From contig JBFLYM010000004.1 in assembly GCA_040757035.1 (NCBI GenBank), forward strand, positions 1-57,350: a stretch of DNA of 57,350 nucleotides, given 5' to 3'. Positions 3,407 through 34,358 of the stretch are shown in pieces. The notes beneath the pieces are model-generated. The model was not told where the DNA came from, ran no database searches, and worked only from the letters and a program-made list of their open reading frames with translations. The position numbers were made by a program, and so were the translations under genes. Origin of the DNA: Candidatus Micrarchaeota archaeon. GTDB taxonomy: Archaea; Micrarchaeota; Micrarchaeia; Anstonellales; Bilamarchaeaceae. Position 1 is the first letter of the stretch. Each line of letters starts with the position of its first letter.

Positions 3407-3436
3407 AAATGTACCGTCTAAATATAAAAATTTGCA

Positions 3437-11456: not shown

Positions 11457-11465
11457 GTAAAAAGG

Positions 11466-11538
11466 AGTTATCACCAGTTATCAAAAAAGAGCTAAATTTT
11501 GATAACTCTTGATAATTCTTGATAATTCTTGATAACTA
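11466..11538. promoter_or_regulatory. Iteron-like array: 2x AGTTATCA, then 4x TTGATAA(C/T)T in the opposite orientation, at 10-bp phasing
   Basis: agttatca occurs at 11466 and 11476. ttgataactc, ttgataattc, ttgataattc and ttgataacta occur at 11499, 11509, 11519 and 11529. The two sets face each other across an A/T-rich spacer. Confidence 0.5.
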
Positions 11539-11549
11539 GGCCTAAATTT

Positions 11550-12809
11550 CTATTTCCGGTTTTTAATAAGAAACAATAAAACAATAAGCACTCCAATCAA
11601 ACTGATATTTCCCACAATAATTGAAAATTGAATTTCACTATGCGGCGCTGATGGTCTATATACATCTAAATTTGTTATGTTTGTACTTCCGTTTTCTGCA
11701 GTCAAATTATGATGAGTAAGCAGGCGATTTGCAATTTTAAATGCGGTTGTATAATTGGAATTAAAATGATCAGTAATATTCAGTGAAAATTGATTTACGC
11801 CATATGCGATATATGTCGTATTGAAAACATATGTATATTGGTACGTTCTATTTTCTGCTTCAAATTGTATCGGTGTAATTTTCTCGGCAACTTCTTGGAC
11901 GGTTATATTGACGGAATCAGAAATATTTGACGAAATTATGCCCCACACTCCAAGCGAATCATTTGTTATGTTGAATGAATATAAATTTGCAATACCAAGT
12001 TCCTGATCGCCTTTAAAAAATCCAACGCACGCAAATTTCATATTTGCGAATGAAAATTGTTCCAGAAGAGAATTTTTGCTCCACTGTTCGCGCAAAATCG
12101 GTTTGTTAAGAAAATAAAGCGGACTACCGCTTTCAACTATGTAAGTGAGATTGCTTTTTACGCCGCGCGTGATGTCAAACGGCGTATTTGAATGTGTGCT
12201 TATGCACGAACACGAATCATTTTCATCATATACCGGAGTCTCTTCATATGCATTTAAGATATAATGAAATGTTATTGTTCCATCAAGAATAAATGTGGCA
12301 TTGTCCCATTCGCTCGCGTTCAGGATATTTTGTAATATTGGAATATTTACTGGATTCTGATCCACTATATTGGCGCTATAAGTTTGGTTTCTGAAAAACG
12401 CGCTAAGATTCGCAAATACGCTTGCATTTTTAAAAATTTTATAATAGTGACTGGTACAACAATCATTGGATATAGTTTCATCTTCATCCGCTGCTTTATA
12501 TGCATAGCGCCAAAGCGCGTATGTTTTTACATTTGAAGAAATACGATCGTCTACAGATGGATAGAGCGTGAGTAAACTTATTTCGGCGCATATTATCGGA
12601 TTGGAGTACGTGGGACTTGAAACATGAACGCATGTACTGTTAAGGAACAAAGGAGCAAGCGCATTATTGTGTTCGCTAATATTTGAGTGCGGTGCATAAA
12701 TACACGCAGCAGCCACGTTATTTATGTTATTTAGAAAGATATATAAAAAAAAGATAGAAAAGATGGCGCAAAAAATAGTGCAAAAAGTAGTGCGAGAAAT
12801 ATTCTTCAT
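11550..12809 (-). CDS. Secreted, C-terminally anchored surface protein (many N-x-S/T sequons), unknown family
   Basis: 419 aa. It has an N-terminal hydrophobic signal (FCTIFCAIFSIFFLYIF...AAA) and a C-terminal TM segment plus basic tail (ISLIGVLIVLLFLIKNRK). It has a 4-nt overlap with the upstream gene. Confidence 0.6.
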   Translation of the reverse strand: MKNISRTTFCTIFCAIFSIFFLYIFLNNINNVAAACIYAPHSNISEHNNALAPLFLNSTCVHVSSPTYSNPIICAEISLLTLYPSVDDRISSNVKTYALWRYAYKAADEDETISNDCCTSHYYKIFKNASVFANLSAFFRNQTYSANIVDQNPVNIPILQNILNASEWDNATFILDGTITFHYILNAYEETPVYDENDSCSCISTHSNTPFDITRGVKSNLTYIVESGSPLYFLNKPILREQWSKNSLLEQFSFANMKFACVGFFKGDQELGIANLYSFNITNDSLGVWGIISSNISDSVNITVQEVAEKITPIQFEAENRTYQYTYVFNTTYIAYGVNQFSLNITDHFNSNYTTAFKIANRLLTHHNLTAENGSTNITNLDVYRPSAPHSEIQFSIIVGNISLIGVLIVLLFLIKNRK

Positions 12810-14737
12810 ATCAATTCATCCAATTCATCCAATGTCGTAAGCCTAAGTATACCGTTCTTTATTTTTAATTCAAGAACTGCGCGCTTTTTACTATCAAGCG
12901 AAGACACATAAGAGCGCATATCGGTACGATCTTCAAAAATCAACAACGCCTCTTTTTTCGCATTTTCAGAATCAAAAACAATTTCCCTTTCTCCAATATT
13001 AAAACCGCATTGAGTTTCACTAAATTCCACTCCGTTTTGTATTAACTTGTCCTTTATTATTCTCTTAAGCGCATTGCGCTTTTCATCGCCCCATGAGCTA
13101 AGTCCGTACAACCCAAGATATTTTTTCACAAGTCCTTTTTCTTCCATTTTTTTCAATATTGTTTCAACGGTGCCTTCTGTCACTTCAACACCATTTGTAA
13201 CGCGCTTAAGCCCTGTGCCTATCTCTCTTGCATAGAGTGGCGTATTTTCCCAACCAAACATTTTTTCTACCTCGTCCAAGACCAAAAGAATTTCATTTGT
13301 TTTAAGTTTGATTTCTTGATTTTTGTTCGGAACGCTGTCAGGAACAAAAATCTTATATATAGCCTTTTTATTCAGGCGTATGGCGATGTAAAAGAATATA
13401 ACTATTAATGCCCCAAACACGAGATATTTTATATAAAATGCGGTTATATCTTCCTGCACATTATCATAAGCAAGATAATGTTTTTGTCCGAAAAGATCTA
13501 TTACAAATATGTTTTCTCCTGGTTTGAGATTCGCACGCACTAAAAAAAATCCATTTCGCACCTCACTCTTTACTTGTGCTGAGGAATGATTTAGTCCAAT
13601 TGTTATTGAAGCATTTTCCAAAGGTTGTTCATCCAAAAGCACACTAAACTCATAAGAATTTCCATATACACGCGCAAGCGAAACATTTATTTCCTTTACA
13701 TGAATACGCTTCGAAGCCATTGTTCCATTCTGGTCAAATATCTTAAGAAGATAGTCGCCAGATGAATTAAACGAAAACGCAAGGAAAAATGCTTGATCAC
13801 CTCTTACACGATCAAGTTCTCCACGTTGTATTATTTTTTTATCTTTTTCCAGTACAAACGTTATCTTTCCGCTAGAGTAGTTTGTCTCTATTGTTATCTG
13901 AGCTTTTTGCCATTGAAAAATATCATCGCTTCCACTTATATTTGCCCGATTTTGTGCAAAGCGTTCCGAATCAGCGAGTGGAAGCATTCGCAACCACTGT
14001 GCTCCATTAAGTTTTAGGAAATATGTTTTGTCACTATCACCAGAATATGAGAACGATGCTGAGTTTTTTTCAGCCCATGCATTTTTTTCTATTTGCTCAA
14101 AAAGCGAGTAATTTTTTTCAGAATAAAACTCATCCAATGTTTTTTCAATTATGAAAACGTGCTTTTTTGCGCTTGCAGAAATATTGGAAACCCAATCAAA
14201 TCGTTCCAATTTATCAGTATAAATAAAATCTTTTTTGCCAAGGTATACTATTTCATTTGTTGCGCTAATATTGTCAATATTTTTTAGAATATCAACTGGC
14301 AATGCACCACATGGAACAATAATTATACTATTTTGCGGTATACTATTTTGCGGTGCAATAATGCGGTCTGTTTCTTCTATGGAAAAGCCCTTTCTTCTAA
14401 GAGCGCTGAGCGAATTAATAAAATTTGAATATTGACCTGTGTTTAGAAAATCATGCTTAAGTACAAAAATTTTGGTTTTTGGTTGTTCGGAAAGCGCAAT
14501 CAAAGTCAAATTGCCGGTTCCATTATAATGCACTATAACGTATCCATAATCTCCTCCACCTCCAAACTCAATTGTTTTCACGATCCCATTTTGTACGATG
14601 GCGCGCTCTTCCTTTTTTTCAGTTGAAGAAAAATAAAATACGACACCAGTTATAATCAGGATAAGTATAACAAGTGCGATAACCAGAAATATTGCGTTCT
14701 TATAATTCACAGTTTTACCCTTGCGCTCTTGAGCCAT
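12806..14737 (-). CDS. Two-TM membrane protein with a large ectodomain and a C-terminal winged-helix-like cytoplasmic domain
   Basis: 643 aa. TM1 is AIFLVIALVILILIITGVVFYF and TM2 is YLVFGALIVIFFYIAI. The C-terminal segment GTVETILKKMEEKGLVKKY is wHTH-like. It overlaps the pheS stop by 31 nt. Confidence 0.6.
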   Translation of the reverse strand: MAQERKGKTVNYKNAIFLVIALVILILIITGVVFYFSSTEKKEERAIVQNGIVKTIEFGGGGDYGYVIVHYNGTGNLTLIALSEQPKTKIFVLKHDFLNTGQYSNFINSLSALRRKGFSIEETDRIIAPQNSIPQNSIIIVPCGALPVDILKNIDNISATNEIVYLGKKDFIYTDKLERFDWVSNISASAKKHVFIIEKTLDEFYSEKNYSLFEQIEKNAWAEKNSASFSYSGDSDKTYFLKLNGAQWLRMLPLADSERFAQNRANISGSDDIFQWQKAQITIETNYSSGKITFVLEKDKKIIQRGELDRVRGDQAFFLAFSFNSSGDYLLKIFDQNGTMASKRIHVKEINVSLARVYGNSYEFSVLLDEQPLENASITIGLNHSSAQVKSEVRNGFFLVRANLKPGENIFVIDLFGQKHYLAYDNVQEDITAFYIKYLVFGALIVIFFYIAIRLNKKAIYKIFVPDSVPNKNQEIKLKTNEILLVLDEVEKMFGWENTPLYAREIGTGLKRVTNGVEVTEGTVETILKKMEEKGLVKKYLGLYGLSSWGDEKRNALKRIIKDKLIQNGVEFSETQCGFNIGEREIVFDSENAKKEALLIFEDRTDMRSYVSSLDSKKRAVLELKIKNGILRLTTLDELDELI

Positions 14738-16098
14738 GTTAAATCGTTTTTATAAAACGTGCGAATATCATCAATATCCATTAGCATCATGAGCGGTCGC
14801 TCCAGACTAAGGCCCCATGCAAGTACCGGATATACGTTTGCGAGTGGAAGCGAAACTTCAGGACGCAGTATTCCAGCACCGCCCATTTCAACCCATTCTT
14901 TTTTTTCATTGAAATATACTATTATTTCCAAACTTGGTTCTGTGTACGGAAAATAACTCGGTCTGAATTTTATTCTTTCAAAACCGAGCTTGGAGTAGAA
15001 CTCTTTTAATATTCCAAGAAGATCACGAAATGTTGCGTTTTCCCATGCAATTATTCCTTCTAATTGCTGAAATTCGGCGAGATGTTTGTAATCCGTTGCT
15101 TCGTTCCTGAATACTCTTCCTATTGCGAAATATTTTTTTGGCGTATTTTTCATAGATGCGAGGTATCTGGCGCTTAATGCAGTGGTATGTGTGCGAAGTA
15201 CTCTTCTTTTCGCTTCGGCTTCGTTCCATGGATTTTCCCATCCTTTTTCGTGCGCTTTTTTAACGTTTTCCACAAGCTTTTTATCCGGCAAAGGTTCTTC
15301 TCCTTCCAAATAAAAAGTATCTGCGAGTTCTCGTGCCGGATGATCCTGCGGTTGAAAAAGCGCGTCAAAATTCCAGAACGCACTCTCTATATAATTACCC
15401 TCCATTTCTTCAAAGCCAAGTTCGGAAAAAATTAAGCGCACGCGCTCAATTACCTCGGTAATGGGATGAATTTTACCCATGTGCGCGTCTTTTGCAGGAA
15501 CAGAAACATCATATTCCTTAAACCCCCTTTTCTTCCATGTCCCTGTGCGCAGCATTTCTGAAGTTAATTTGGTTATTCCTTCTTCTCCAAATTTTGCGTT
15601 TATGCCATCATCGGTTATCCAAAGCGTTATTTCTTTTTTGCTTTTTTCTACCGCAATTCCTCTCTTTAACCATTCTTCTGAATTTGCGCTTTGCGACAAA
15701 TAAGATTTAGAGTACTCGCTTATCTCATATGCTGATAATTTTTTTTCTGGCACAAATTTACCTTCGATGAATTTGACAAGTCCTTTGTCCATAGCCCATT
15801 TTATGCCAAATTGTTTTTCATCGGCAGTAAACGAACTTATATCCTTTCCATCAGCAATTTTTTGATATACGCGGATTTCTGGAAGCCGATTTTTAAGATA
15901 ATTTTTTCCTTCCTCTGTAAACACTATCATCTTTGATACTACTATATCTTTTTTTATCAATCCTTTTTCTTCAAGAGAAATAAGCGGGCGCATGAGCGCA
16001 TCTTGATTTAGCTTGAGAGCGGTGGCAATCTCAGCGAGCGAAACATTTTTCATGGTTTTTAGGTAGTCTAATATTTCGTGTTCATATTTGTATTCCAT
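14707..16098 (-). CDS. pheS: Phenylalanyl-tRNA synthetase alpha subunit (archaeal type)
   Basis: 463 aa with N-terminal wHTH repeats. Class II motifs are present: HPARELADTFY, RTHTT, GRVFRNEATDYKHLAEFQQLEG and GAGILRPEV. Confidence 0.95.
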   Translation of the reverse strand: MEYKYEHEILDYLKTMKNVSLAEIATALKLNQDALMRPLISLEEKGLIKKDIVVSKMIVFTEEGKNYLKNRLPEIRVYQKIADGKDISSFTADEKQFGIKWAMDKGLVKFIEGKFVPEKKLSAYEISEYSKSYLSQSANSEEWLKRGIAVEKSKKEITLWITDDGINAKFGEEGITKLTSEMLRTGTWKKRGFKEYDVSVPAKDAHMGKIHPITEVIERVRLIFSELGFEEMEGNYIESAFWNFDALFQPQDHPARELADTFYLEGEEPLPDKKLVENVKKAHEKGWENPWNEAEAKRRVLRTHTTALSARYLASMKNTPKKYFAIGRVFRNEATDYKHLAEFQQLEGIIAWENATFRDLLGILKEFYSKLGFERIKFRPSYFPYTEPSLEIIVYFNEKKEWVEMGGAGILRPEVSLPLANVYPVLAWGLSLERPLMMLMDIDDIRTFYKNDLTWLKSARVKL

Positions 16099-16112
16099 TT
16101 CATCTCCTCATT

Positions 16113-16907
16113 TTATCTTCTTGAGATTTTCAAATAAAAATAAGAACAGATTAGTATTACCGCAATTGCCAATGCGGTCAGTTCTTCCTGCCCAAACCGA
16201 ATTGCGCTTATATTTTTCTGGAAATCAGAAAAGAACCCAACAACTTCTTTATCCAAACTTTGCTCTATTTCATAGATAAGAGAAAACTGCACCAGCGTAA
16301 GCCCGCTCCAGTTCAGAGTTTTTGATGTGGTATTCAAATTTTCTATTTTTGGATTAATATTTACTATTATTGCATTAGTCGGAAGAATAAATGAAATTGT
16401 GGTTTTCTTATCCAATCTTATATCTCCGTTTTCGGTGCGCTGAAGATTAAACGCACTTTCATTCAGTGTAAAGCGAGTCGTTCTTGGTTTATATTTTTCT
16501 ATTTTGGTAATGCCTGTATTGTTCGTTATATTTCCGTCCTTGTCGTAGTAAGGGGATGCAATATATGAAATTATTATTTGGGTAAACCAAATATCCTCAG
16601 AAATGGATTTTCTTGGAGGTTGAGGTAGTATAATGATGTTTTTCAAATCAACATTCTTTCTGTTTAAATGAATCTTTATTTCGTCTATATTGGTTATTTC
16701 CTGCCAATTAGAAAGCGCATTTTTATCATAACCGCTTTCGTAAAGCTGTCTGCTGTACGAATCGTTTATCATAATACGTATTTTTTCTTCTACATTTGCA
16801 TTACCGTCTTCATTTAATTTTATTGTAATCTCAAAATCCTGAAGCTGAAAGCCAGCAAACACAAAATTTGCCAAAAGCAGTATTAAAAGTAATTTTTTAA
16901 CGTTCAT
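16113..16907 (-). CDS. Secreted, C-terminally anchored surface protein, unknown family
   Basis: The signal is MNVKKLLLILLLANFVFAGF and the C-terminal TM is LTALAIAVILICSYFYLKISRR. The ORF track starts it at 16922. The Met at 16907 avoids overlap with the divergent gene. Confidence 0.55.
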   Translation of the reverse strand: MNVKKLLLILLLANFVFAGFQLQDFEITIKLNEDGNANVEEKIRIMINDSYSRQLYESGYDKNALSNWQEITNIDEIKIHLNRKNVDLKNIIILPQPPRKSISEDIWFTQIIISYIASPYYDKDGNITNNTGITKIEKYKPRTTRFTLNESAFNLQRTENGDIRLDKKTTISFILPTNAIIVNINPKIENLNTTSKTLNWSGLTLVQFSLIYEIEQSLDKEVVGFFSDFQKNISAIRFGQEELTALAIAVILICSYFYLKISRR

Positions 16908-16959
16908 GAATAATAAAAACACCTGCAGTTTTTTAAACTATCTTTTCTTATTAACTGAT

Positions 16960-18201
16960 ATGCGCTGTGCCATTATTATATTTTCATTACTGTTTTTTAC
17001 ACAATCAAGTTTTGCAGTAGAACCTTATTATACTATTGTTCCAATAGGTGGGCTGCTGGCTGTTTTTATCATCGCAATTTTTTACATGGCATCGCAATTC
17101 CTTCAAAACCCCCAACTTGAAGCGTGGACTAAAAATGAATTGAAAGAATTAATGATCGCAGGAATAACCATAAGTATTGTTTATGTCGCAATGAGCGTAT
17201 CTACAGGAGAACTATTAGGCACTATAACAGGTTATGCCGATAAAAGCGATTTGATTTCAGGAATAGAAACAAAATTCAATGAATTTGAAAACGCGCTTCT
17301 AAACGATTATAATCATTTGATAAAGGCTTCAAACAGATTCGGAATGCTGAGTTCCTACACATATTCGCAAAGCGCAGGGTTTATAATAATGTTTGGAAAA
17401 ACCGATGCTCCTCTTCTTGGTGCTGGCGGAATGATGCAGTCTCTTTCAATACTCGCGTCAAGCGCATCAAACGGAATTTTAATTTATGAAGCAATGAAAA
17501 TATTTCTAAAATTTTTCTTTGACACCTCAATCAATTATCTTCTTCCGATCGCGTTTGTTTTTCGCATGCTGCCGTTTACAAGAAAAATAGGTGGAACGCT
17601 TATAGCGCTGGCGCTCGCTGGCGTTTTTATTTTTCCGTTTTCAATGGTGCTTGCTGCAACAGTGCACGACAGTGTCGGAGTTACGCATTCGCAAATGACG
17701 TCCCCGGACTTTGAAAAAATAACTCTTAAACTTGATAATCGAATAACAGAGATGTGTACAGATTCCACATTAAGGCTTTTGGTTTCACTTAGCGAATATG
17801 GTTGGTGGGCGATGATATGTCCTATATATTGTTCAATATTCGCCGCAGCCTGCGGACCTGGCGCACCTGCTTGTTTTGCAGCATGTATACCACCCACACC
17901 TGGTGGAATTTGTTTTAGCAGTTATGTTTATCCATTGTATAACTATATACAAACCGCATACTCAATCGCGAGTTCAATAGCGTTAGTCACATCTGCGCGC
18001 AATGTTGTTCCGAATGTGGAAAGTAGCGGAGTGATATTCGACATATTGACGAATAAACTTATTGTTCCGGTAAGCGTTGCGGCATCTCTCCCGCTCATGG
18101 AAGTGGTACTTGTTGGCGCGCTTACAGTTGTTGGCGCAAGAAGTCTTTCATCAGCATTGGGAGGAGATATAGCGATAAGCGGATTAGAACGACTGATCTA
18201 G
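16960..18201 (+). CDS. Polytopic membrane protein, novel paralog family member P1
   Basis: The signal-like start is MRCAIIIFSLLFFTQSSFA (the track opens at 16906). The family motifs are LQNPQLEAWTKNELKEL, FRMLPFTRKIGGTLIALALAGVFIFP and the C-terminal GGDIAISGLERLI. Confidence 0.7.
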   Translation: MRCAIIIFSLLFFTQSSFAVEPYYTIVPIGGLLAVFIIAIFYMASQFLQNPQLEAWTKNELKELMIAGITISIVYVAMSVSTGELLGTITGYADKSDLISGIETKFNEFENALLNDYNHLIKASNRFGMLSSYTYSQSAGFIIMFGKTDAPLLGAGGMMQSLSILASSASNGILIYEAMKIFLKFFFDTSINYLLPIAFVFRMLPFTRKIGGTLIALALAGVFIFPFSMVLAATVHDSVGVTHSQMTSPDFEKITLKLDNRITEMCTDSTLRLLVSLSEYGWWAMICPIYCSIFAAACGPGAPACFAACIPPTPGGICFSSYVYPLYNYIQTAYSIASSIALVTSARNVVPNVESSGVIFDILTNKLIVPVSVAASLPLMEVVLVGALTVVGARSLSSALGGDIAISGLERLI

Positions 18202-18258
18202 AAGGAGGGTCAAGATGATATCAAAATACAAAACAAATTATGAATAAAGAGAGATTTT

Positions 18259-21122: not shown

Positions 21123-21140
21123 ATTTTACAGGTTTTATAA

Positions 21141-22073: not shown

Positions 22074-22137
22074 AAAATGGATATAAAGGGTTGGCATAAA
22101 AAATTGATATTAAAAGTTGGCATAAAGGGTGACATAA

Positions 22138-23136: not shown

Positions 23137-23176
23137 ATAATATAAATATATCCAAACATAATCAAACATAATTGCG

Positions 23177-24253: not shown

Positions 24254-24255
24254 CC

Positions 24256-27200
24256 ATGAATAATATGAAAGATATAGAGAATATGAACAATATAAAGAAT
24301 ATGAAAAATACAAACAATACAATTATGAATATGAAAAGTTCGGTTTTTGTCTGCTTGTTTGTGCTATTGTTTATTTTATCTGGATGTTATGCCCCAAATA
24401 TGCAAGGTCCGTGCTGCACAATAAACACAAGCAACCCAAACACTGTAAAGTGTATGCTCACGAATCCTGTAGATCCAACTACTAGCATTGCTCCGTCACC
24501 AGAAATGTGCAATGGTTCAATAGTAAGTAACGGTCTTATGTGCAATACAGATTGGTGCGCGACAGCAGAACCATCACAAAACGAGACAATTTATGTAAAA
24601 TATGATATAAATGGGCGCCACGTTCTTAACTGTACTGGTGTTTCGCTGAGTAATAAGAGCGAACCATGCAACAATATTGGATATTGCCACATTATATTTA
24701 CAAACATCACCAATAACAACAATACCTATGCGTTTTATCCGCAGTGCAGCAATAGGGCAGAGCTTGCTTTTGATACCAATTGTAAAACCATGCTATGCGG
24801 AAACATACAATATTCACCAAAGCAGTCTCTTCTTCCTGAATATGGAAAAAACATGACGTATCAAAATCTAAAAACCACAGCAACCCAAATGCTCTATGCT
24901 GCTACATGTAATTTTTATACTCTTGATGCTCCAACAATGAAAAAACTAAAAAGGGCAAAGGATGTTTTTGTTAATACATTTAGAATAGGCTTTGGAAATT
25001 CAATATCAGATTTTGAGGAAGCGCGTCTTTATTTTCCACTTAGCGATAAATTTTGCAGGACGGCGCAAGGAAAAGATAGATATATGAATTATCTTAATGT
25101 TAGTTTTACCGCAAGCGGTTACTTTGATTGGTGGCAGTATTATTCGCACGAAAAATGGAAAACCTGGCATGCTGATAATGTAACCGTTAATTCGTTTGAT
25201 CCATCCACAATTATAAATCGTTCTGTTGCACTTGGATGTAACACAAGCGTTCGTAATTTGAGTTCACATGAAACAATGAATTATAAGGAATTTCCGCCTG
25301 CTGCATCAAGCGGAAATTATTTTCTTAAAATATTTAATGAATCATATATTCCAGCAACGTATATAATGCCTGATACAGAAAGATATAAATACGAACTTTA
25401 TAGAAATTATTGGGATAAAATATACAAAACAAATCTAAATGATTCGGCTCCTACTCTTATACAAAATTTTTCGCATTTTGAATGCAATTCTTCATTTGAT
25501 TGCGTTTCTGGGTTATGCACAAAGCAGGATAGCGGGTATGAGCGCGGTTTTTGTACGCGCAGCGATGGCAACGTAACAAATTGCATGTGTTATGAAGTTG
25601 GTTCAAGATTGCGACCAGGAAATGAAGTGCGTTGTGAAGCGTTTGAAAATTCAAATACATTCAGACCATTAACTACCAATTTATGCGAAATTAGATATCA
25701 TGAAAAAAGTGGTTCATGTAAGAAGAAGTGCGAAGGTTTTCCACCAGAATGCACTCGGACCTGCAGCGGCTACAAACCTAAAACTGGGTGTAGTGGTTTT
25801 TTTTATGTGGGGGATACATGTACATATGACGAACCATACATGAATTGTACGGATATAATCAATGCACCGCAAATAGTTTTTTTCAATCAAACTATAGAAG
25901 GATATAAAGGTTATGCAAGAATGAACGAACCCGAGTTTCAGCGCTCAATGTTAGCGGCCAGTTGCGGACCATTTGTAAAAGGAACTGATTATAATGTTGC
26001 AAACTATTTGCCAGACTACAATATAGCGACGAATAAAGATCGTTGGGCGTGTGCAAACAGTGAATGGAGAACCAAAGGAGTATGTACTAAGACTTATAAA
26101 GAGTTAATATTATTTAAAACACTTGGTAAGTGCACAAAAGATGATCAAAAGCCAGAAGCGAATTTTCTGAATGTTAGCAATGTTTATGGATGGTGCGAAC
26201 CATGTACGCATGCGACTATGGTTTCTGTGAATTTGGATGATTATTATAAGGCATATAATGGTTATTATTTCGGATGTTATTCATCATACCCCGGCGGTGA
26301 AAGTTGCGGATGTGGAGCAGCAGTTGGCGGTCTTCCATGCGGCACAATGTCGAACTATATGGACAGCGTTGCGAATATTAGAACAAGAATAGATAATTAC
26401 TTAAAAACAGGAGTAATGCCTATAATTTGGTATATGAGCAATAGCAGCAATCTTGGCACAACCTGGACATATTCTGGAGGATATTATACAGTGTGTCATA
26501 GATGCAACAATGCACCAACCGATGCTGCTCGAACAACAATAATAAACACTCTAAAAAGTTATAATCCAATATATTCTGCTGATAGTACCAATAAATTTTT
26601 TGACAATTTCAATGCTTGGTGTTATTATAATGATTGGACATCGTGTTCGTGTCACAATAAACCATGCGAATGTAGTGGCCCTTACCAAGCAAAGCAACAA
26701 TCCAGTAATCCTTCTGGAGAGACATATATTGGAGAGAGAACAGAAAATAAAGAAGCACTATCTTTCAAATGTCATGCGTGTGATCACCATGCACATGATA
26801 CTTTTTGTAATTGGGGCATGGGTTATCATTTCCTCAAAAATGCAATAGGAAACAGTGCATCAATAGTAGTTATTGCATCGTCAGTTGATGGAAAAAACGC
26901 AACTACTATAGCTACGCGCGCGACACAACTTAAAACCGAAAATTGCCCAAATTGTTTGGCTGCGCTCTATGTGCCAAAAATGAACACAACACGACTGGAT
27001 GAAATTTTTGGCTGCACAGATCAGTATAATTGCAAAATAAGAGGCAATGACGCCTGGAAAAACATAGACATCATTCTTTATGATGATAGAATAAACGATT
27101 ATACTGGGATTGATAGAAATTTGGCGATATTGGAAGGTGTGGCAAACAAAAGCAGACAGCTTCTTTTGCGCTATTCAAAACCGAGTATTCCTTTAATTTC

Positions 27201-28017
27201 AATTGATGACAGTTATTTAGGATGGTCGCTTTACAACAATACATTCGAAGCAATGAAATATTTACTGGAAAATCAAACCGAATTAATAAACAGTGGAGCA
27301 ATATCACTTTATTTCAGAACATGGTATGGTTCCAGCACAAACACCAGCACTGTTGTTACAGCGCAAAATAGTACAAATAGGTTGCCAACATCAAAAGATG
27401 AAAAATTCTGCGGAATTGAACGTGCTATGGTCAATTATTTATATCAGAATTTAATAAAAACGGTTTATAATAAAATAACCGCGGTGAATTTAAGTGATGC
27501 AAAATGCGAAGAGTGCACATCAACAGATCACTTTTTTGGTCTATGCAATCGCACATGCGAAAATGGAGTTGAATGTGAATTGTCTCCTAATATGGACGCA
27601 AATAACGCGCGCTGTCCAAGAAACACCGTGATAAACCCCTGCACGCTTTGCAACGATTCTATCTATTCAAACAGAATTATTACCTGCAATTATTCATATT
27701 CGGATGGAACAATTGACTCGCATGATTACACTTATAATGATTTCTCCACTATTAGTACATTCGATATGTATGCGGATATAATTTCCAGTCTTCCAAAACA
27801 GGACAAATGCTGTATGGCAAGCGGTGATGAAGAAGGAACGCAACAAAATTATACTTACATAAAAATAAGCGGTGAAGGAACTGCAACAAATCCAATCCGC
27901 TTTGCCGCATGGGGAAATGAAACCATTGATTGTAGCATGAACACAGATACCAGTTCATTCTGCAACATCACGCTTCCGATAAAAAATTATAAAATAAATT
28001 GTGCGGTGCAAAAATGA
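24256..28017 (+). CDS. Giant Cys-rich, sequon-rich secreted protein with a lipobox-like signal (1253 aa)
   Basis: An Asn/Met-rich leader is followed by VFVCLFVLLFILSGCYAP, a lipobox-like L-S-G-C. Cys pairs are dense throughout (for example CKKKCEGFPPECTRTCSGYKPKTGCSG), and there are many N-x-S/T sequons. I see no C-terminal TM. It starts 2 nt after the P6 stop. Confidence 0.75.
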   Translation: MNNMKDIENMNNIKNMKNTNNTIMNMKSSVFVCLFVLLFILSGCYAPNMQGPCCTINTSNPNTVKCMLTNPVDPTTSIAPSPEMCNGSIVSNGLMCNTDWCATAEPSQNETIYVKYDINGRHVLNCTGVSLSNKSEPCNNIGYCHIIFTNITNNNNTYAFYPQCSNRAELAFDTNCKTMLCGNIQYSPKQSLLPEYGKNMTYQNLKTTATQMLYAATCNFYTLDAPTMKKLKRAKDVFVNTFRIGFGNSISDFEEARLYFPLSDKFCRTAQGKDRYMNYLNVSFTASGYFDWWQYYSHEKWKTWHADNVTVNSFDPSTIINRSVALGCNTSVRNLSSHETMNYKEFPPAASSGNYFLKIFNESYIPATYIMPDTERYKYELYRNYWDKIYKTNLNDSAPTLIQNFSHFECNSSFDCVSGLCTKQDSGYERGFCTRSDGNVTNCMCYEVGSRLRPGNEVRCEAFENSNTFRPLTTNLCEIRYHEKSGSCKKKCEGFPPECTRTCSGYKPKTGCSGFFYVGDTCTYDEPYMNCTDIINAPQIVFFNQTIEGYKGYARMNEPEFQRSMLAASCGPFVKGTDYNVANYLPDYNIATNKDRWACANSEWRTKGVCTKTYKELILFKTLGKCTKDDQKPEANFLNVSNVYGWCEPCTHATMVSVNLDDYYKAYNGYYFGCYSSYPGGESCGCGAAVGGLPCGTMSNYMDSVANIRTRIDNYLKTGVMPIIWYMSNSSNLGTTWTYSGGYYTVCHRCNNAPTDAARTTIINTLKSYNPIYSADSTNKFFDNFNAWCYYNDWTSCSCHNKPCECSGPYQAKQQSSNPSGETYIGERTENKEALSFKCHACDHHAHDTFCNWGMGYHFLKNAIGNSASIVVIASSVDGKNATTIATRATQLKTENCPNCLAALYVPKMNTTRLDEIFGCTDQYNCKIRGNDAWKNIDIILYDDRINDYTGIDRNLAILEGVANKSRQLLLRYSKPSIPLISIDDSYLGWSLYNNTFEAMKYLLENQTELINSGAISLYFRTWYGSSTNTSTVVTAQNSTNRLPTSKDEKFCGIERAMVNYLYQNLIKTVYNKITAVNLSDAKCEECTSTDHFFGLCNRTCENGVECELSPNMDANNARCPRNTVINPCTLCNDSIYSNRIITCNYSYSDGTIDSHDYTYNDFSTISTFDMYADIISSLPKQDKCCMASGDEEGTQQNYTYIKISGEGTATNPIRFAAWGNETIDCSMNTDTSSFCNITLPIKNYKINCAVQK

Positions 28018-31000
28018 AAATGAGCAGGACATTGTTATCATTAAATAATGGTTTTAATAATAGCTTTTGTTCATCTGTTATGTTTACACTAATATTTATA
28101 CTAATATTTACGCTAACTTTTATATTACCGGCATGTGCTAATGCAATTACAGTTACGCAAAATCCATCTTCAGATTTATTTGTAAATCCTTCAGGAAATT
28201 TAAATTACACTCAGAATATTTTTTTTAATTGGAGTGTAAGCGAACAAGTGCAAGGAACATGCACATCTAATTGTACTTTGAATGGCGACAATTACACGTG
28301 CGTCCCATGCACGCCAGGAATATATGGCGATAGTCCATGCAATAGCAAATGCACAGTATACCCTTATCCCAATTCAAACTCATGCACTGTTTCATGCGCT
28401 TCAGGAGAAAATGTTAGTTGCAATTCCTGCACCCCACCCACTCCTGAAGATAATAATTGCAGTGCAACATGCATCAACGAAACTAATGGTGATGTATTGT
28501 GTATCGATATCTGTCATGTTTCGCCTAGTGCCTGCACAGGAAGTTGTAATCTTCCTCCTGCAGCAACATGCAATTTGTCGCTCGATAATGAAGTAAAAAA
28601 AACAATTCCTGTAACAGAAGGCACGCCATTATTTGAATCGTATTCACCAATTTCTGAATGTGTATTGCATCCATGGAATATAAATTGCTGGGATGGATTT
28701 GGGCAATCGCAAATATTCAACTCTTTTACAATTTACTCCGCTACCTCAGCGACGCCAACTTTAATCAATCAAAATATTGAAATTGAACATCAAAGAGGCG
28801 GAACGCCAATAACGTTTAATTGGAGTATGGAAGGGGGAGGATGTAAAGGTACAAATGTTAGTTGTAGTATTATAATCCCAGGCGCAAATATTGTTTCAGA
28901 ACAAACCGCATGCACGATTGGTAATTTGTGCTCTGCAACCGTTGTACTCCCAGATTCGTTCGCATGCAATTCAGATTGGTATGTGAGTTGCATTGACACT
29001 GCAGGACAAAACAGTTCAAGCGCAATTGGCAGTATAAATGTACTTATTCCGCATTGTATTAATATTCAAACCAATCAATCCCAGCCAATTTGTAAAATTT
29101 CGCAGAATTTGAATGCAAGCGGTAGCGATTGTATCTCCTTAAATAATATCAATTCACCTCAATTGGATTGCAGTGGTCATTTAATTACTGGTTTAGGAAC
29201 AGGAAGCGGAAGCAGCGGCATAAGCATACGCAATTCATCAAAAGCCGTACTTAAGAATTGCGGTGTATATTTGTTTGAAAATGGAATTGAAATATTGGAT
29301 TCTAACTCTGTTTCTATTTCAGATTGCGAAATGGCGAGTTGCTCTGCTGGACTCTATGCAAAAAATGCAGATAATATTGTCCTGGCTTCAACATCGTTTA
29401 GCGACAATACTTTGGCGGCAATTATAAAGAATTCTGATAACGTTGTTTTGGATGATGTTGATATAGGCGATAACGAAAATGGAGTTATTTTTGACCATGG
29501 CGATAACATAACAATAAATAAAATGGATGCAAAAAACACCAATTCTTCATATGCGATAAATTTTACTTCTGTAAACGTAGCGCGCGTGAGTGGTTCTGAA
29601 TTCTGGAAGAACGGTAATGCTGATGAAGAGGAAGAAAGTAATGCGAGTTCTAGCGGTGGAGGTATATTAATAGATTCATCAAATGGTGTCAGCATAGAAA
29701 ACAATGCATTTGATTCTGATACAATCTCAATAAATGTAATCGGAAGCGCTTTTAACACCACAATATCCAAAAATACTATCACCAATAGTATATCAGGAAT
29801 AGTTGCTTCTGATTCAAGCAACTCAATAACAATAAAAACAAATAATATAACAAAATGTACAACAGGACTGATGTTCGATAGCGGTTCTTCTGATGTAATG
29901 TTTTATAACAATATATTGGATAATGAACTGAATGCGGTTGTAGACACCGAATCGGTTTCTGCTTCATTAAGCGAACCGGATGAAAGCCAAACCAATATTT
30001 TAGGATGCGGTGCGTTGGGTGGAAATGCATGGTTTTCTCAAGGAAATGGTTTTTCAGAAAACTGTTCTAATTTTGATAACAATTGTTTTTGCGATGAAAA
30101 TTATTCTATTGATGAAATTGTAACAGATTTATTTCCACTCACTATAAATAAAGGTCTTGAATTTTCTGTTTTAATAAGTTCAATAGCTGGTAAACAGGCT
30201 GGTAGTTATGAACAATACATAAATAAAGAGTATGTCGCGGCAACTCCTTATATTCCTGCCCTTGTGGTTATAAACCTAATAACTTCACACGATGCTGAAT
30301 TTTTTTGCAATTCTTCACTTGGGGGCAATGTAACAATAAACACTACTTTATCCACAGAAGGCATAATAAATGTTACAAAGCCAGTTGGGTGCTATAATAT
30401 CACAGTGAAATGCGCGATCAATATTACAAATGCAAGCTCGCAAGAACATACCTTTTGCATAGACGATGTTCCTCCTGCGATCAATTTTGGAATAAGACAG
30501 AATATAAGTGGTATAATAATTAATCCGAACGATAATGAAATTTTGAATAAGCATTCGTTCAGGCTTAATATGTCTGCCGATGATTCGCTATCAACGTTTG
30601 TTGCAATGTGTATATTTGAACTGAATGATACAAACGAAATCTTTTTGCCAGAAACCAATGCTGATGGGCGGCAGTATTGCGTAAAAAAAAGAACTTTGCA
30701 AAATGGAACCTATAAGTATAGAATGTTCGCTGTTGACGCTGCGGGAAACGCCGCATCAACTGGCTATAGAACTGTGATAGTAGATGCGCCTCCTTCTAAC
30801 GCAGGCTGTTCGGAATGCGAAAACATAGGCGATTATTTCAAAAGCGGTATTTCAAGCGCTATAGATGAAACCAATAAAAAAATAGCATTAATTCTTTATA
30901 TGGAAAATTTATCAGGGCATAGAATAGCGATGCCTGGTGCACCTGTGCTTGTGTGGGTGAAAAACGCGAGCTACGAAAATTTAAGCAAAGTTGTAACCAA

Positions 31001-34000
31001 TGCGAATGGAAGCGCTTATTTTAGTTATGCCCCATGGAACAACAGTGCGATGGATTATACATTTATATATTGCTGTTTTTATGAAGATTGCGGTTTTGAC
31101 AAATGCCTGATTGGCGCAAAAGTAAGCGCAAACTATATTAAAAAATACGGTATTTATGATGTTAATAGCGTTCCTGATGCATCGCCTAATCAACCAAATA
31201 TTAATTATTCGCAAATTTATGTTCTTCCTATAAACGAAAAATTGAAAATAAATCCTAAAGTAGATAAAAATCTGCTTGAAGGCAGTGAAGCGCTTTGTGT
31301 TCCGATATTTATGCTATTTGGAATTCTTCTCGCGGCTCTTTATTATAGCGGAAGAAATCCGCTTGGATTTATAGATTTTTCTCCGTTGCGCATGAGCAGT
31401 CATATAAGATACACTCCAAGAGGCATGCAAACAGGGGTTAAGATAACTACGACTACATTAAGGACCCTTGATTCGGTACGAAAAATGGGAAAAAGAGGCG
31501 ATGATGGTAAAGAGACTAAATTCTCATTCAAAAACATTGCAAAAGCAGATAAGGTGACGTTCACGAATATCAAAGATGGAATCGGCATGATTAAAACTAT
31601 TGTTAAAGGGCATAAAAAAGAATCTTCCACCGATGGAAAAGGACCTTCCACTATACAATCATGGCGAATAGCTCTTTTCAGTGATAAAAGTGGTAAAGGA
31701 CAAACAACAGGAGGAGGAGCAGCAACAGGAACAAGCGATCAACAACCCGGTGTAATGTCTGGAGATAATATCTATAGAACAACAGGTGGAAGACAAGCAA
31801 GTGGGTTAATAGGTGTTCTTGCATTGTTTGGGTTAATGACCGGTGGAATGAAAGGAGGGGTAAAAGGAGGGGCACTAGCAAATTTCCTAGAAATAGCGAA
31901 TACGCAGTGGGATGTAATGAGTGCTGATTACCAAAGGAGATCTAAACACAAATGGCTAAGTTATGTGCCTCTTTTTGTCCTAACATACAATACAATTAAA
32001 GAGATGGTAGGTGCTGCCGCAAGGGACGTTCTTCATGTAAAGGAAAGTTGGAAAGAACGGAGTAGAAAAAATGCTTCAGAACAAAAATTACAAACAAAAG
32101 AAGTTTTAGATGCCACTCCACCTAAAGGAACTACAGATAAACCACCGAAAGAATATGTTGTTGAATTAGAGAAAGATCAATATAAAGTTCAAGTTATTAA
32201 TACAGAGGATAAAAAATCAATTAATGTAGTTTTTAAGGATGGTAAAGTAGTTATAGATCCAGAAATCGTAGATGCTGTAGTTAATAGATTGAAGGCAAAC
32301 GATAATAGAGCATATGTAGCGTATCAACAAGAACTTGAAGCTGCAAAAGCAGCACCGAAAACAAAAACAGTGGAAACAATTGTACAAGTTTCTGAAAAAA
32401 AATATTCCAGTGCTCCACAAACTTTTGAAGTAGCAAAAGTTTCGTATGGAGGATGGAAAGAACACGAAGTTTTGGAAAAAGGAGACAAAGATAGCAAGGA
32501 TTCTCATAAAATAAAAGAGCTTCAAATGTTGCTTAATTGGATGATTGACAACAAGATAATTGAGGGCAAAAAAATATCACAAAATGAAATGGGCACATTC
32601 GGAGCAAAAACAGAAGCGCTTGTAAAAGCAGCGCAAATTGCTGGAGAAAAATTTGTTGATAAAAATGGTATGATATCTGGCAGCAATATAAAATATGATG
32701 CTCCGAGAGATGGCAAAGTCGGAATAGAATTTATGTCTATGTGCAAAGCAATTACCAATGAAACACATACTATAGAAAAAACAATCAAAAAAGAAGAATC
32801 AATTAGTCCTCCTCCTATTAAAGAAGATACCCCTCGTACATTCGGAGAAACCAATTTCTACGGAACTAAAATTGAAGAAAAACAAGATATATCAATAGGC
32901 GACCATAAAGGTGTGTCGCAAATGAGAATAAATGCGGGGATAGAGAAATCAATAGAAAAGCTTCCAGAATGGTTAAAAAAGAGAGCTATGGATATGCAAA
33001 GCCTTTATGAACAAAGTACAATTGGAGGTACAGGAGGAGATGTTGCGAAAGGATTTGCAGGAGCAGTTGGCGAATCTCTTGAAGCTTTTGGACTTGGCAT
33101 AATTAATGATATGATAAAACATAAAATGACGCCTGATCAAGCACAGGAAAAAATAGATATACTTTTAAAGCGAGATAATGAAGGAAAAACGCATTTAGAG
33201 AAGCTTATGGTGGCACCTAATCCAGATGTTCATCTTAAAACTATACTCGGAGGCGATGGAAAACCGGTATTCAAAAGCGTTGGTGAATTTTATCAAGCGG
33301 TATCGATAACAAACGAAGAATACTACAAGAAGACAGAATCTTGTATTGCCGCTATGATGGGAAAGCTTAAGGACCAATCAAGTCAGAATGAAACATATAA
33401 TGAGATTAAAAAAATTTATGACTTAGAAAAAACCGATCCAAATTTATATTCAGTGCGGAAGAATGAGTATGAAAACAAGTATGAATATGATGAAATGGGA
33501 AATATACAACGCCGCAGCCGCAATATGTTTAAAGATATTAGAGGGCTTATGCCTGATAAAGATGAGACTTCTAAGGAATTTGACGCCGTCTATGAAAAAC
33601 AAAAACAACTCGGTCATCTTGAGAAGAGTTTTAATGCTTATATTGCTAATGAAATGATATATTTAGATGCTAATTACACAATAGAAAAAACCAAGAAGGA
33701 ATTGGAGAACCTCCAGGCCTCCACCAACTCAGATGAATTTAATAAAAAAGTAGAAGAAATAACCAAAAATGCAAAAAGGGTAGTTTTAATTCAAGATGAA
33801 GATCCAATTCTTACAGAAGCCAAAAAAGAATTTATTACTATGCGAGATAGTCCACCTAAATCCGATAAAGAGCATCTACAAAAACTCGCCATGTTAAAAA
33901 ATCCTGAAGTATATCTTAATTATAAACAAAGTAGCTTTGTTCTTAGTGGAGTTAACCAGTTGCGCGAAGAGATGAGAAATGCAGCAGATATTTTTAATAA

Positions 34001-34007
34001 AAAATGA
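28014..34007 (+). CDS. Giant transmembrane protein: Cys-rich ectodomain with parallel beta-helix (PbH1-like) repeats, TM segments, and a ~900-aa Cys-poor Lys/Glu-rich tail
   Basis: ATG 28014 overlaps the upstream stop as ATGA; the track opens at GTG 27999. It has a signal/TM and CxxC-rich modules. PbH1-like repeats appear (ISIRNSSKAVLKNCGVYLFENGIEILDSNSVSISDC...NIVLASTSFSDN...). A TM segment reads ALCVPIFMLFGILLAALYY, followed by a long charged C-terminal region. Confidence 0.75.
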   Translation: MKMSRTLLSLNNGFNNSFCSSVMFTLIFILIFTLTFILPACANAITVTQNPSSDLFVNPSGNLNYTQNIFFNWSVSEQVQGTCTSNCTLNGDNYTCVPCTPGIYGDSPCNSKCTVYPYPNSNSCTVSCASGENVSCNSCTPPTPEDNNCSATCINETNGDVLCIDICHVSPSACTGSCNLPPAATCNLSLDNEVKKTIPVTEGTPLFESYSPISECVLHPWNINCWDGFGQSQIFNSFTIYSATSATPTLINQNIEIEHQRGGTPITFNWSMEGGGCKGTNVSCSIIIPGANIVSEQTACTIGNLCSATVVLPDSFACNSDWYVSCIDTAGQNSSSAIGSINVLIPHCINIQTNQSQPICKISQNLNASGSDCISLNNINSPQLDCSGHLITGLGTGSGSSGISIRNSSKAVLKNCGVYLFENGIEILDSNSVSISDCEMASCSAGLYAKNADNIVLASTSFSDNTLAAIIKNSDNVVLDDVDIGDNENGVIFDHGDNITINKMDAKNTNSSYAINFTSVNVARVSGSEFWKNGNADEEEESNASSSGGGILIDSSNGVSIENNAFDSDTISINVIGSAFNTTISKNTITNSISGIVASDSSNSITIKTNNITKCTTGLMFDSGSSDVMFYNNILDNELNAVVDTESVSASLSEPDESQTNILGCGALGGNAWFSQGNGFSENCSNFDNNCFCDENYSIDEIVTDLFPLTINKGLEFSVLISSIAGKQAGSYEQYINKEYVAATPYIPALVVINLITSHDAEFFCNSSLGGNVTINTTLSTEGIINVTKPVGCYNITVKCAINITNASSQEHTFCIDDVPPAINFGIRQNISGIIINPNDNEILNKHSFRLNMSADDSLSTFVAMCIFELNDTNEIFLPETNADGRQYCVKKRTLQNGTYKYRMFAVDAAGNAASTGYRTVIVDAPPSNAGCSECENIGDYFKSGISSAIDETNKKIALILYMENLSGHRIAMPGAPVLVWVKNASYENLSKVVTNANGSAYFSYAPWNNSAMDYTFIYCCFYEDCGFDKCLIGAKVSANYIKKYGIYDVNSVPDASPNQPNINYSQIYVLPINEKLKINPKVDKNLLEGSEALCVPIFMLFGILLAALYYSGRNPLGFIDFSPLRMSSHIRYTPRGMQTGVKITTTTLRTLDSVRKMGKRGDDGKETKFSFKNIAKADKVTFTNIKDGIGMIKTIVKGHKKESSTDGKGPSTIQSWRIALFSDKSGKGQTTGGGAATGTSDQQPGVMSGDNIYRTTGGRQASGLIGVLALFGLMTGGMKGGVKGGALANFLEIANTQWDVMSADYQRRSKHKWLSYVPLFVLTYNTIKEMVGAAARDVLHVKESWKERSRKNASEQKLQTKEVLDATPPKGTTDKPPKEYVVELEKDQYKVQVINTEDKKSINVVFKDGKVVIDPEIVDAVVNRLKANDNRAYVAYQQELEAAKAAPKTKTVETIVQVSEKKYSSAPQTFEVAKVSYGGWKEHEVLEKGDKDSKDSHKIKELQMLLNWMIDNKIIEGKKISQNEMGTFGAKTEALVKAAQIAGEKFVDKNGMISGSNIKYDAPRDGKVGIEFMSMCKAITNETHTIEKTIKKEESISPPPIKEDTPRTFGETNFYGTKIEEKQDISIGDHKGVSQMRINAGIEKSIEKLPEWLKKRAMDMQSLYEQSTIGGTGGDVAKGFAGAVGESLEAFGLGIINDMIKHKMTPDQAQEKIDILLKRDNEGKTHLEKLMVAPNPDVHLKTILGGDGKPVFKSVGEFYQAVSITNEEYYKKTESCIAAMMGKLKDQSSQNETYNEIKKIYDLEKTDPNLYSVRKNEYENKYEYDEMGNIQRRSRNMFKDIRGLMPDKDETSKEFDAVYEKQKQLGHLEKSFNAYIANEMIYLDANYTIEKTKKELENLQASTNSDEFNKKVEEITKNAKRVVLIQDEDPILTEAKKEFITMRDSPPKSDKEHLQKLAMLKNPEVYLNYKQSSFVLSGVNQLREEMRNAADIFNKK

Positions 34008-34031
34008 ATAAAAATTTCTAAAAATGATATC

Positions 34032-34358
34032 ATGGGGCTTTTGAAACTTCTTTTTGAAAAATTTGGCAGTACACCTAAAGGACAGAAAGCAAAATGTCCG
34101 AACTGCGGAGCAGAAGTTACACTTAAAATGGAAAGATGCCAAAAATGCGGCGTGCATATTAAATCAATGTTCAAAAAAACCTGTCCGAAATGCAAAGAAC
34201 TTAATGATTTGGATGTTGAAAAATGCCAAAAATGTAAATATGATTTTGCAATAGAACTTGCGCAAGCGAAAAAAACAGTTTATATATGTCCGATATGCGG
34301 ATATAAAGCAGATTATTATATGCTTAAATGTCCTTCGTGTAATGCGAGGTTTGTATAA
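34032..34358 (+). CDS. Triple zinc-ribbon protein
   Basis: 108 aa with three CxxC...CxxC pairs: CPNCG/CQKCG, CPKCK/CQKCK and CPICG/CPSCN. It is the last gene of the plus-strand operon. Confidence 0.6.
   Translation: MGLLKLLFEKFGSTPKGQKAKCPNCGAEVTLKMERCQKCGVHIKSMFKKTCPKCKELNDLDVEKCQKCKYDFAIELAQAKKTVYICPICGYKADYYMLKCPSCNARFV

Follow-up and report, generated by a model that had tools for sequence, protein, structure and literature searches.

Organization of the Locus

The subject of this study is an envelope locus at positions 11550-34358 of a 57-kb contig from Candidatus Micrarchaeota (referred to as the window), whose GC content is ~36% throughout. In the initial annotation, the locus was taken to encode a dedicated surface apparatus of a small-genome, possibly host-dependent archaeon, made of proteins outside the curated families. 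The locus indeed proved to be conserved and dedicated, and its proteins lie outside those families; the archaeon belongs to DPANN, with relatives among Micrarchaeota and Iainarchaeota. All 13 open reading frames (ORFs) were found at the coordinates assigned to them before. They are arranged in two divergent operons with the same intergenic gaps and overlaps.

The plus-strand operon starts with six genes for polytopic membrane proteins, P1 (16960-18201), P2 (18259-19275), P3 (19272-21122), P4 (21141-22073), P5 (22138-23136), and P6 (23177-24253), which represent orthogroups 1 to 6 in this order. They are followed by G1 (24256-28017), a Cys-rich, secreted protein of 1253 aa with a lipobox, by G2 (27999-34007), a single-pass giant of 2002 aa, and by Zn (34032-34358), a protein of 108 aa with four CxxC pairs forming a double zinc ribbon (Pfam DZR, 1e-9). 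Thus, the six paralogs, the lipobox giant, the β-helix transmembrane giant, and the zinc ribbon that had been described were all present. On the minus strand, m269 (16113-16907 or 16113-16922; 264 or 269 aa, depending on which of two candidate starts is used, the true one probably being the ATG at 16907) is followed by pheS, encoding the α subunit of phenylalanyl-tRNA synthetase (14707-16098; Pfam tRNA-synt_2d, 2.4e-89), m643 (12806-14737; 643 aa), and m419 (11550-12809; 419 aa). The two operons are separated by an AT-rich intergenic region of 52 bp between m269 and P1 (16908-16959), as read from the sequence. Hydropathy agreed with a signal peptide plus C-terminal anchor for m419 and m269 and with two transmembrane (TM) segments for m643. 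Pfam and hidden Markov model (HMM) scans likewise bore out the absence of an ATPase, a pilin, and a known transporter domain from the locus.

P1-P6 Constitute a Family of Orphan Membrane Proteins

P1 to P6 are true paralogs that share 19-25% identity and align over their entire length. They have in common a hairpin of the form LPxxxxxRxxPFTRKxGG, in which R, R, G, and P residues are invariant, and most of them carry the C-terminal tail GGD/E...GLxRLI, P2 being without the GGD/E motif. Hydropathy analysis yielded ~5 TM helices per paralog and a topology consisting of a signal-like N terminus, TM1, TM2, a loop of ~100 aa, a TM3-loop-TM4 hairpin, a variable segment, and TM5. In P1, a Cys-containing ectodomain lies between TM4 and TM5. 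In P3, the variable segment before TM5 is rich in Cys residues and sequons and forms an ectodomain of ~280 aa with 28 Cys residues after the conserved hairpin. P4 is the minimal family member. The charged RxxPFTRK loop and the distribution of Cys residues and sequons, as in the P3 segment, suggest an N-out/C-in orientation.

When all locus proteins were scanned against Pfam, NCBIfam, and PHROGs, no match was obtained for any of P1-P6, and no family was assigned to the paralogs or the giants beyond the β-helix/NosD domain of G2, which is what the initial annotation had led us to expect. The wider family gave the same picture: no match was found in a Pfam scan of 27 members or an NCBIfam scan of 83 members, and a profile search of PDB sequences with the family profile was negative. 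An exhaustive search with the family HMM retrieved 3100 representatives at 50% identity (E ≤ 1e-3). The matches of a six-paralog profile were solely unannotated proteins from metagenome-assembled genomes (MAGs) of Micrarchaeota and "ainarchaeum" (probably Iainarchaeum). Some family members are N-terminally fused to Beta_helix/NosD, CARDB, or Ig domains, kinds of domains that also occur in the ectodomain of G2.

The Order of the Genes Is Fixed

In a 73%-identical relative (L001) and in two relatives of 26-31% identity (L002 and L006), six genes are followed by one for a protein of 1050-1370 aa and then by one for a giant. The best BLASTP match of each paralog from the window was the gene at the equal position in these relatives. 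A scan of GTDB with P1 orthologs, in which each species was represented by one genome, yielded 24 loci, all from Micrarchaeota, Bilamarchaeaceae, or "ainarchaeum", and the P1-P6 array also recurred in L033/L034 and L071-L073. The order P1-P6 followed by G1 was encountered in over 30 loci from Micrarchaeota and Iainarchaeota, so that the synteny check proposed earlier turned out strongly in favor of conservation. The core mapped in this way consists of a G2-like single-pass gene, usually divergent and directly upstream of P1, the genes P1 to P6, G1, and the gene for the zinc ribbon protein. Recurrence of this order in dozens of independent MAG and metagenome contigs far exceeds chance.

A rank test was conducted with 13 complete arrays, the window, and 14 family members from the cassette described below. 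The best match in another locus had the identical rank in 14/14 cases for every one of seven orthogroups. Because best matches are rank-consistent at each position, the P1-P6 array is ancient and its order fixed.

A variant array is present in L033/L034 (Anstonellales), where six family members stand in a row at 10001-17342. An ORF of 228-231 aa that was not flagged by the family HMM comes after this array, G1 is not directly downstream, and a gene for a class I aminoacyl-tRNA synthetase (926 aa) lies between the G2-like gene (1412 aa) and P1. In 14 related loci (L010-L032), a gene for a PadR-like winged helix-turn-helix (wHTH) protein of ~105 aa, f3, adjoins the locus upstream of the G2-like gene and may encode a regulator of the P1-P6 locus. 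It is followed by Fap7/AK6-like (f4) and ScpB-like (f5) genes; the Fap7/AK6-like kinase and ScpB were considered as parts of the system and dismissed as housekeeping genes. Homologs of f3, f4, and f5 are absent from the window, which has m643, with its weakly PadR-like cytoplasmic domain, instead of f3.

The Giant Surface Proteins and the Zinc Ribbon Protein

G1 contains 71 Cys residues (5.7%) and an LSGC lipobox. Its family (f2) was found in 17 loci, and G1 adjoins P6 downstream in all cases. The lipobox motif [LFA][AST]GC, followed by GCC, is kept in 16/17 orthologs, and G1 is predicted to be a lipoprotein whose signal peptide ends in this conserved lipobox. No match for G1 was found in Pfam, NCBIfam, PHROGs, or PDB sequences.

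G2 contains 55 Cys residues (2.7% overall), nearly all of which are located in aa 1-1091, where they amount to 4.8%. A β-helix spans aa 406-678 (nt 29214-30032; Pfam NosD 9e-24, Beta_helix 4e-14), and the ectodomain also includes a weak Ig-like domain. A TM segment at aa 1092-1118 is followed by a Cys-free, Lys/Glu-rich, cytoplasmic stretch of ~880 aa, the Lys/Glu-rich region itself being given as aa 1290-2002. Pfam, NCBIfam, and a motif check revealed neither a Walker A motif nor a match to an ATPase family in G2, and sequence and profile searches of PDB with G2 and m643 gave no match. Only aa 924-1292 of G2 align to the f1 proteins, the genes of which in most other loci precede P1 in divergent orientation. 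The conserved module (aa ~935-1290; nt 30801-31868) comprises the membrane-proximal part of the ectodomain, the TM segment, and the first cytoplasmic stretch. The Cys-rich, β-helix-bearing part from aa 1 to ~930 is a lineage-specific addition.

Zn is 54% identical to a protein encoded next to the L002 locus. A gene of this type directly follows G1 in three loci (L017, L021, and L024), whereas in L002 it precedes P1. The zinc ribbon protein is a frequent neighbor of the locus.

A Seventh Orthogroup Resides in a Cassette with a CedB-like ATPase and a VirB2-like Pilin

One weak match of the family, P0016, is the product of a single-copy gene and contains the hairpin nearly verbatim (FLPLGLIFRSFFITRKIGG). 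Its gene cluster encodes, in this order, a protein of 135 aa that has a signal peptide and two hydrophobic helices, P0016, a protein of 262 aa that carries two TM segments at its N terminus (2-TM protein), a 513-aa ATPase (DUF87/AAA_10), a 266-aa protein with a coiled-coil and a wHTH domain, and PheS-PheT; pheS-pheT directly follow the cassette in L003-L005. The best NCBIfam matches of the ATPase were CedB (8e-22), the VirB4-like protein CD1110 (3e-20), VirB4 from mycoplasma integrative and conjugative elements, and TraC; these matches outranked HerA, and all were below the curated cutoffs. The ATPase family comprised 1171 matches at E ≤ 1e-10; wherever an organism was named, it was Micrarchaeota or "ainarchaeum", and NCBI lists one homolog as CedB. 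The same cluster was found in a 34%-identical relative. The 81-aa protein encoded upstream in L035 matched PF18895 (T4SS_pilin, where T4SS stands for type IV secretion system) with 6e-4.

Scanning of metagenomes led to 39 loci. The composition of the cassette was assessed by a six-frame HMM census, in which the count for the ATPase was limited to single-copy loci with at least 2.5 kb of downstream sequence (n = 22). The ATPase was present in 20/22 of these informative loci, and a pilin-like gene in 16/40 single-copy loci, pilin-like genes being located directly upstream of the family member; these counts overstate independence because some of the loci are near-duplicates. The rank test placed the cassette member of the family in an orthogroup of its own, P0.

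The Ced system of Sulfolobales and the Ted system of Thermoproteales, both of which serve DNA import, are minimal domesticated archaeal T4SSs (PMC9905601). According to the initial annotation, none of the known archaeal modules for secretion, pili, or conjugation corresponds to the locus. This statement does not hold, as the seventh orthogroup of the P1-P6 family sits in a Ced/Ted-like minimal T4SS cassette. From its place beside a VirB2-like pilin and a CedB/VirB4-like ATPase it follows that P0 occupies the position of VirB6, CedA, or TedA. With ~500 aa, the ATPase appears too short to contain the N-terminal domain of VirB4, which may be supplied by the 2-TM protein of 260-270 aa. In L003, the 2-TM protein (11043-11831) and the ATPase (11828-13369) add up to roughly the size of a VirB3-VirB4 fusion, as do their equivalents.

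The cassette is flanked by common housekeeping genes in STA_33 and in Ca. Bilamarchaeum dharawalense, its chromosomal neighbors are kept between L075 and L079, and no relatives of it were found in IMG/VR. Because the housekeeping neighbors are conserved and relatives in IMG/VR are absent, the cassette is regarded as chromosomal and vertically inherited, as are Ced and Ted. The same two observations speak against assigning the locus to an integrated conjugative or other mobile element. T4SS-like components are typically found on mobile elements, and three DUF4143/AAA_14 ATPase genes are scattered in the window. However, the GC content is uniform, Pfam scans of the window did not reveal an integrase, a relaxase, or a coupling protein, and orthology is positional across the phylum. 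An origin from a mobile element is largely refuted and would be most surprising.

Links between the Six-paralog Locus and the Cassette

Two proteins encoded next to P1-P6 have homologs in the cassette. m643 consists of an N-terminal TM segment, an ectodomain of ~390 aa, a second TM segment (aa 430-457), and a cytoplasmic domain of ~185 aa with a PadR-like winged helix (Pfam PadR, 3e-4, below cutoff). Proteins of 710-730 aa encoded after the ATPase cassette in L051, L066, L068, and L077 matched m643 in phmmer searches with 1e-17 to 4e-15, and the homology spans ~320 aa including the TM segment and the cytoplasmic wHTH domain. m419 has a signal peptide, a sequon-rich ectodomain, and a C-terminal TM anchor, and it matched nothing in Pfam, NCBIfam, PHROGs, or PDB sequences. 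An HMM of cassette proteins of 724-1024 aa aligned to aa 24-129 of m419 (E 2e-8; phmmer 2e-5 to 6e-5). In L075, the m419-related cassette protein is encoded between P0 and the ATPase. m419 is a relative, reduced in length, of the large surface protein encoded in the CedB cassette, and the homology is confined to the N-terminal domain.

m269, for which hydropathy indicated a signal peptide and a C-terminal TM anchor, had only a weak Pfam match (DUF2207_N, 0.003) and none in NCBIfam, PHROGs, or PDB sequences. Homologs were absent from all related loci examined; hence, m269 is considered to be specific to this lineage and could not be assigned to the system. The minus-strand operon is not uniform: m643 and m419 have homologs in the cassette, pheS is a housekeeping gene, and m269 lacks homologs in related loci.

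In L002, a pair of paralogous pilin-like genes (120 and 114 aa) is located 8 kb upstream of P1. Four genes for small proteins follow the pair, a hydrophobic segment being present at the N terminus of at least three of these proteins, and the whole (1619-4185) looks like a small pilin cluster. The six-paralog locus and the cassette occur together in the related MAGs STA_33 (contigs JAQTME..06 and ..07) and STA_81 (contigs JAQTOF..11 and ..28); in both, the ATPase lies on another contig than the array. In the window, the ATPase and the 2-TM partner of the cassette were absent according to Pfam and to phmmer/HMM searches of all ORFs and six-frame translations, and none of the ORFs of 40 aa or more was pilin-like.

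Structural Comparison with VirB6

VirB6 of plasmid R388 has seven long helices, five of them hydrophobic, and forms the pentameric base of the stalk, which carries VirB5 and recruits the pilin (PMC9259494). Alignment of the family with TrwI, the VirB6 of R388, by hhalign gave no match. Structures were predicted with AlphaFold2 for P4 (pLDDT 88.5, pTM 0.82) and P0016 (pLDDT 89.7, pTM 0.83); both models consist of long helices, to which P4 adds one β-hairpin. The models were compared with 350,542 PDB chains using Foldseek. The first-ranked chain for P0016 was R388 TrwI/VirB6 (8rt9_F; E 0.077, probability 0.84, TM-scores 0.25/0.30; not significant). For P4, no chain surpassed TrwI/VirB6 in probability or TM-score (7o3v_G; E 0.37, probability 0.69, TM-scores 0.34/0.37; not significant), and the match to 8rtd_L was similar. 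The remaining matches were BAR domains, TTYH channels, and designed helical repeats, most of them with root mean square deviations of 18-60 Å. Comparison with the R388 record, together with a sequence search of PDB, established that the 8rt9 and 7o3v chains are TrwI and not TrwJ. The helical fold of the family is confidently predicted from the models, and its resemblance to VirB6 is suggestive only.

A profile built from 18 pilin-like sequences aligned over its entire two-helix hairpin to TM1-TM2 of the family in hhalign with a probability of 54% and E 1.3e-4; the next alignment had E 0.13 and the reversed profile E 0.35. A profile of only 4 pilin sequences reached a probability of 7.7%. For CedA1/CedA and VirB2/VirB6, similarity of the pilin to the N-terminal hairpin of its polytopic partner has been reported (PMC9905601), a relation mirrored by the similarity between the cassette pilin and TM1-TM2. 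Gene position, topology, the best fold analog, and the pilin-hairpin similarity agree with one another and in combination are suggestive, none being conclusive alone. Sequence comparison does not establish P1-P6 as members of the VirB6 family.

The resemblance to VirB6 might also be convergent, as can happen between membrane proteins with long helices, and the locus would then be an envelope biogenesis or uptake system unrelated to T4SSs, e.g. a platform for the insertion or export of Cys-rich glycoproteins or a pore for nutrients or lipids. Such a system would be in line with the lack of a significant sequence or fold match to VirB6 and with SecD/SecF being encoded 2 kb downstream. It would leave unexplained why P0 is encoded between a T4SS-type pilin and a CedB/VirB4-like ATPase, the latter in 20/22 loci, and why VirB6 is the best PDB analog of two separately modeled members. 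We consider this explanation improbable.

Proposed Function

On balance, we lean, at only slightly better than even confidence, toward the interpretation that the locus encodes an envelope machine derived from a T4SS of the Ced/Ted kind, with a multi-paralog VirB6-like base, giant surface proteins, and an ATPase and a pilin encoded elsewhere. A VirB6-type subunit would have been multiplied into seven specialized paralogs, P0 in the cassette and P1-P6 in the locus, and the locus would be the second half of a Ced/Ted-like machine distributed throughout Micrarchaeota and Iainarchaeota. In the cytoplasmic membrane, P1-P6 could join to form a heteromeric VirB6-like base, from which long helical hairpins would project outward, carrying the Cys-rich ectodomains (P1, P3, G1, and G2) that contact a host or partner cell. 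A docking face in the cytoplasm might be formed by the conserved RxxPFTRKxGG loop together with the GGE...GLxRLI tails, the tail of G2, and the Zn protein. Energy and pilin would be provided by the cassette encoded elsewhere, of which only two types of protein would remain near this locus, m643 and, by way of its N-terminal domain, m419. Working like a VirB6-based apparatus, the machine would serve to transfer cargo, either DNA as in Ced/Ted or other macromolecules, between the small archaeon and its partner upon contact. A more specific version of this scheme, in which P1-P6, possibly with P0, form a hetero-oligomeric conduit of six or seven subunits that together with G1 and G2 bridges cells for the exchange of DNA or cytoplasmic material with hosts, is put forward tentatively and is clearly the less probable proposition.

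Several results weigh against the favored interpretation. Neither the ATPase nor the 2-TM partner was found within 8-10 kb of any multi-paralog locus (0/32), and over the same distance a pilin was found only in L002 (1/32). As the ATPase is not nearby, the coupling of the locus to the cassette rests on the shared family, two neighboring homologs, and co-occurrence. The ATPase was found in related MAGs and is only presumed for the genome from which the window derives. The homology of m419 to cassette proteins is limited to ~105 residues. No significant match to TrbL/VirB6 or to curated families was obtained with Pfam, NCBIfam, or the PDB profile search, and a match to CedA was likewise absent among the curated models compared. 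The Foldseek matches to VirB6 are insignificant (E 0.08-0.8, TM-scores 0.25-0.37), and the similarity between the pilin and the TM hairpin could in part reflect transmembrane composition.

The distance of the ATPase from all multi-paralog loci would also be expected of the main alternative, an autonomous complex for surface anchoring or adhesion, in which P1-P6, descended from VirB6, now merely serve as a scaffold for G1 and G2 as adhesins, with neither ATPase-driven transport nor a link to the CedB cassette. The ectodomains are adhesin-like, being Cys-rich and sequon-rich and including β-helix and Ig-like domains, and family members are fused to domains of adhesin type. Nevertheless, a passive anchor would hardly account for the strong conservation of the cytoplasmic features, namely the RxxPFTRKxGG loop and the tail at the C terminus, the Zn protein, and the large domain of G2/f1 on the cytoplasmic side, and the locus is adjoined by m643 and m419 of cassette type and, in L002, by pilins. 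We judge a pure adhesion complex to be rather unlikely, less so than convergence on a VirB6-like fold.

The proposed T4SS-derived machine resembles Ced and Ted in being a chromosomal, non-mobile set of a VirB2-like pilin, a polytopic VirB6-like protein, and a VirB4-like ATPase, and its components are as unrecognizable by sequence as those of Ced and Ted are to each other. It differs from them in having seven ancient polytopic paralogs, six of which are encoded with giants in a separate operon lacking an ATPase and a pilin, and in its host phylum, which belongs to DPANN; DNA import is only proposed here. TrwI/VirB6 of R388 (7O3V/8RT9), the best fold analog of both models, shares long α-helices, a base in the membrane, and helices pointing outward. 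In contrast, a relationship at the sequence level is undetectable, TM-scores are only 0.25-0.37, and the R388 base is a homopentamer, while here six or seven different subunits would be used, large Cys-rich ectodomains being present in some of them. Tandem proliferation of VirB6, with some copies becoming huge, is also known from the rvh T4SS of Rickettsiales, likewise host-dependent organisms with small genomes (PMC2653234, PMC7648143), which however are diderm bacteria with paralogs recognizable as VirB6 by sequence. The parallel is an evolutionary one and does not imply homology of the arrays.

Giant SPEARE proteins of nanohaloarchaea were reinterpreted as T4SS-related, and a role in host interaction was proposed for them (PMC10266531). 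For Patescibacteria, a T4SS was found to be essential for epibiotic growth, as cited in PMC12102498 (see also PMC10633639). Both cases concern ultra-small episymbionts with giant membrane-anchored, adhesin-like proteins and parts of T4SSs. Like SPEARE, G2 combines an ectodomain, a TM segment, and a cytoplasmic region, here of ~880 aa; unlike SPEARE, it has no cytosolic VirB4/TraG ATPase domain, and the protein families differ.

How DPANN archaea attach to and depend on their hosts is a long-standing question, and almost no machinery has been identified in Micrarchaeota. In the literature on T4SS-type genes of Micrarchaeota and DPANN, no description of this locus or of a T4SS from Micrarchaeota was found. 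With the present results, ~23 kb of hypothetical proteins are turned into a testable hypothesis: a very large orphan family with seven fixed orthogroups is defined, with the VirB6 stalk base as structural analog, and so is a set of partners comprising a pilin, a 2-TM protein, a CedB-like ATPase, wHTH proteins, and m643- and m419-like proteins. The idea of a minimal domesticated T4SS (Ced/Ted) would be extended from Crenarchaeota to DPANN, and the parallels with Patescibacteria epibionts, which depend on a T4SS, and with Rickettsiales, in which VirB6 has expanded, suggest convergent use of T4SSs by reduced, host-dependent cells. If the tentative proposal of a hetero-oligomeric conduit is correct, the locus would represent a distinct, phylum-wide class of T4SS-derived nanomachines, all components of which are sequence orphans.

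Neighboring Genes and Non-coding Sequence

SecD and SecF are encoded at 36426-39279 on the minus strand and could be relevant to the export of the giant proteins. Between them and the locus lie an ORF of 185 aa and one of 452 aa that resembles glutamine synthetase by reading alone. A 349-aa protein (53098-54147, minus strand) contains a weak thioredoxin-like domain (Thioredoxin_2, 1.5e-4, below cutoff) and is a candidate extracellular factor for disulfide formation in the Cys-rich ectodomains. A CDC48-type double-AAA ATPase is encoded a few kb from the locus, both in the window (5340-7493, plus strand) and in the distant relative L002 (5438-8149). The CDC48 gene was tried as a component of the system and rejected; it is absent near other loci, and the proximity is probably a coincidence. 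The three paralogous AAA_14 plus DUF4143 ATPases mentioned above, an unusually high number for a stretch of this size, are encoded at 454-1785 (minus strand), 7928-9220 (plus strand), and 44934-46136 (plus strand).

Rfam and tRNA scans detected no tRNA, rRNA, or other RNA gene in the whole 57-kb window. These scans were also empty for a non-coding gap of 650 bp (10897-11549) between endA and the end of m419. The gap contains a near-perfect tandem duplication of ~30 nt at ~11395-11470 (gcgcg..ttttgtaaagtcaagtaaaa) and, at ~11500-11540, four copies of the motif cttgataa(t/c)t.

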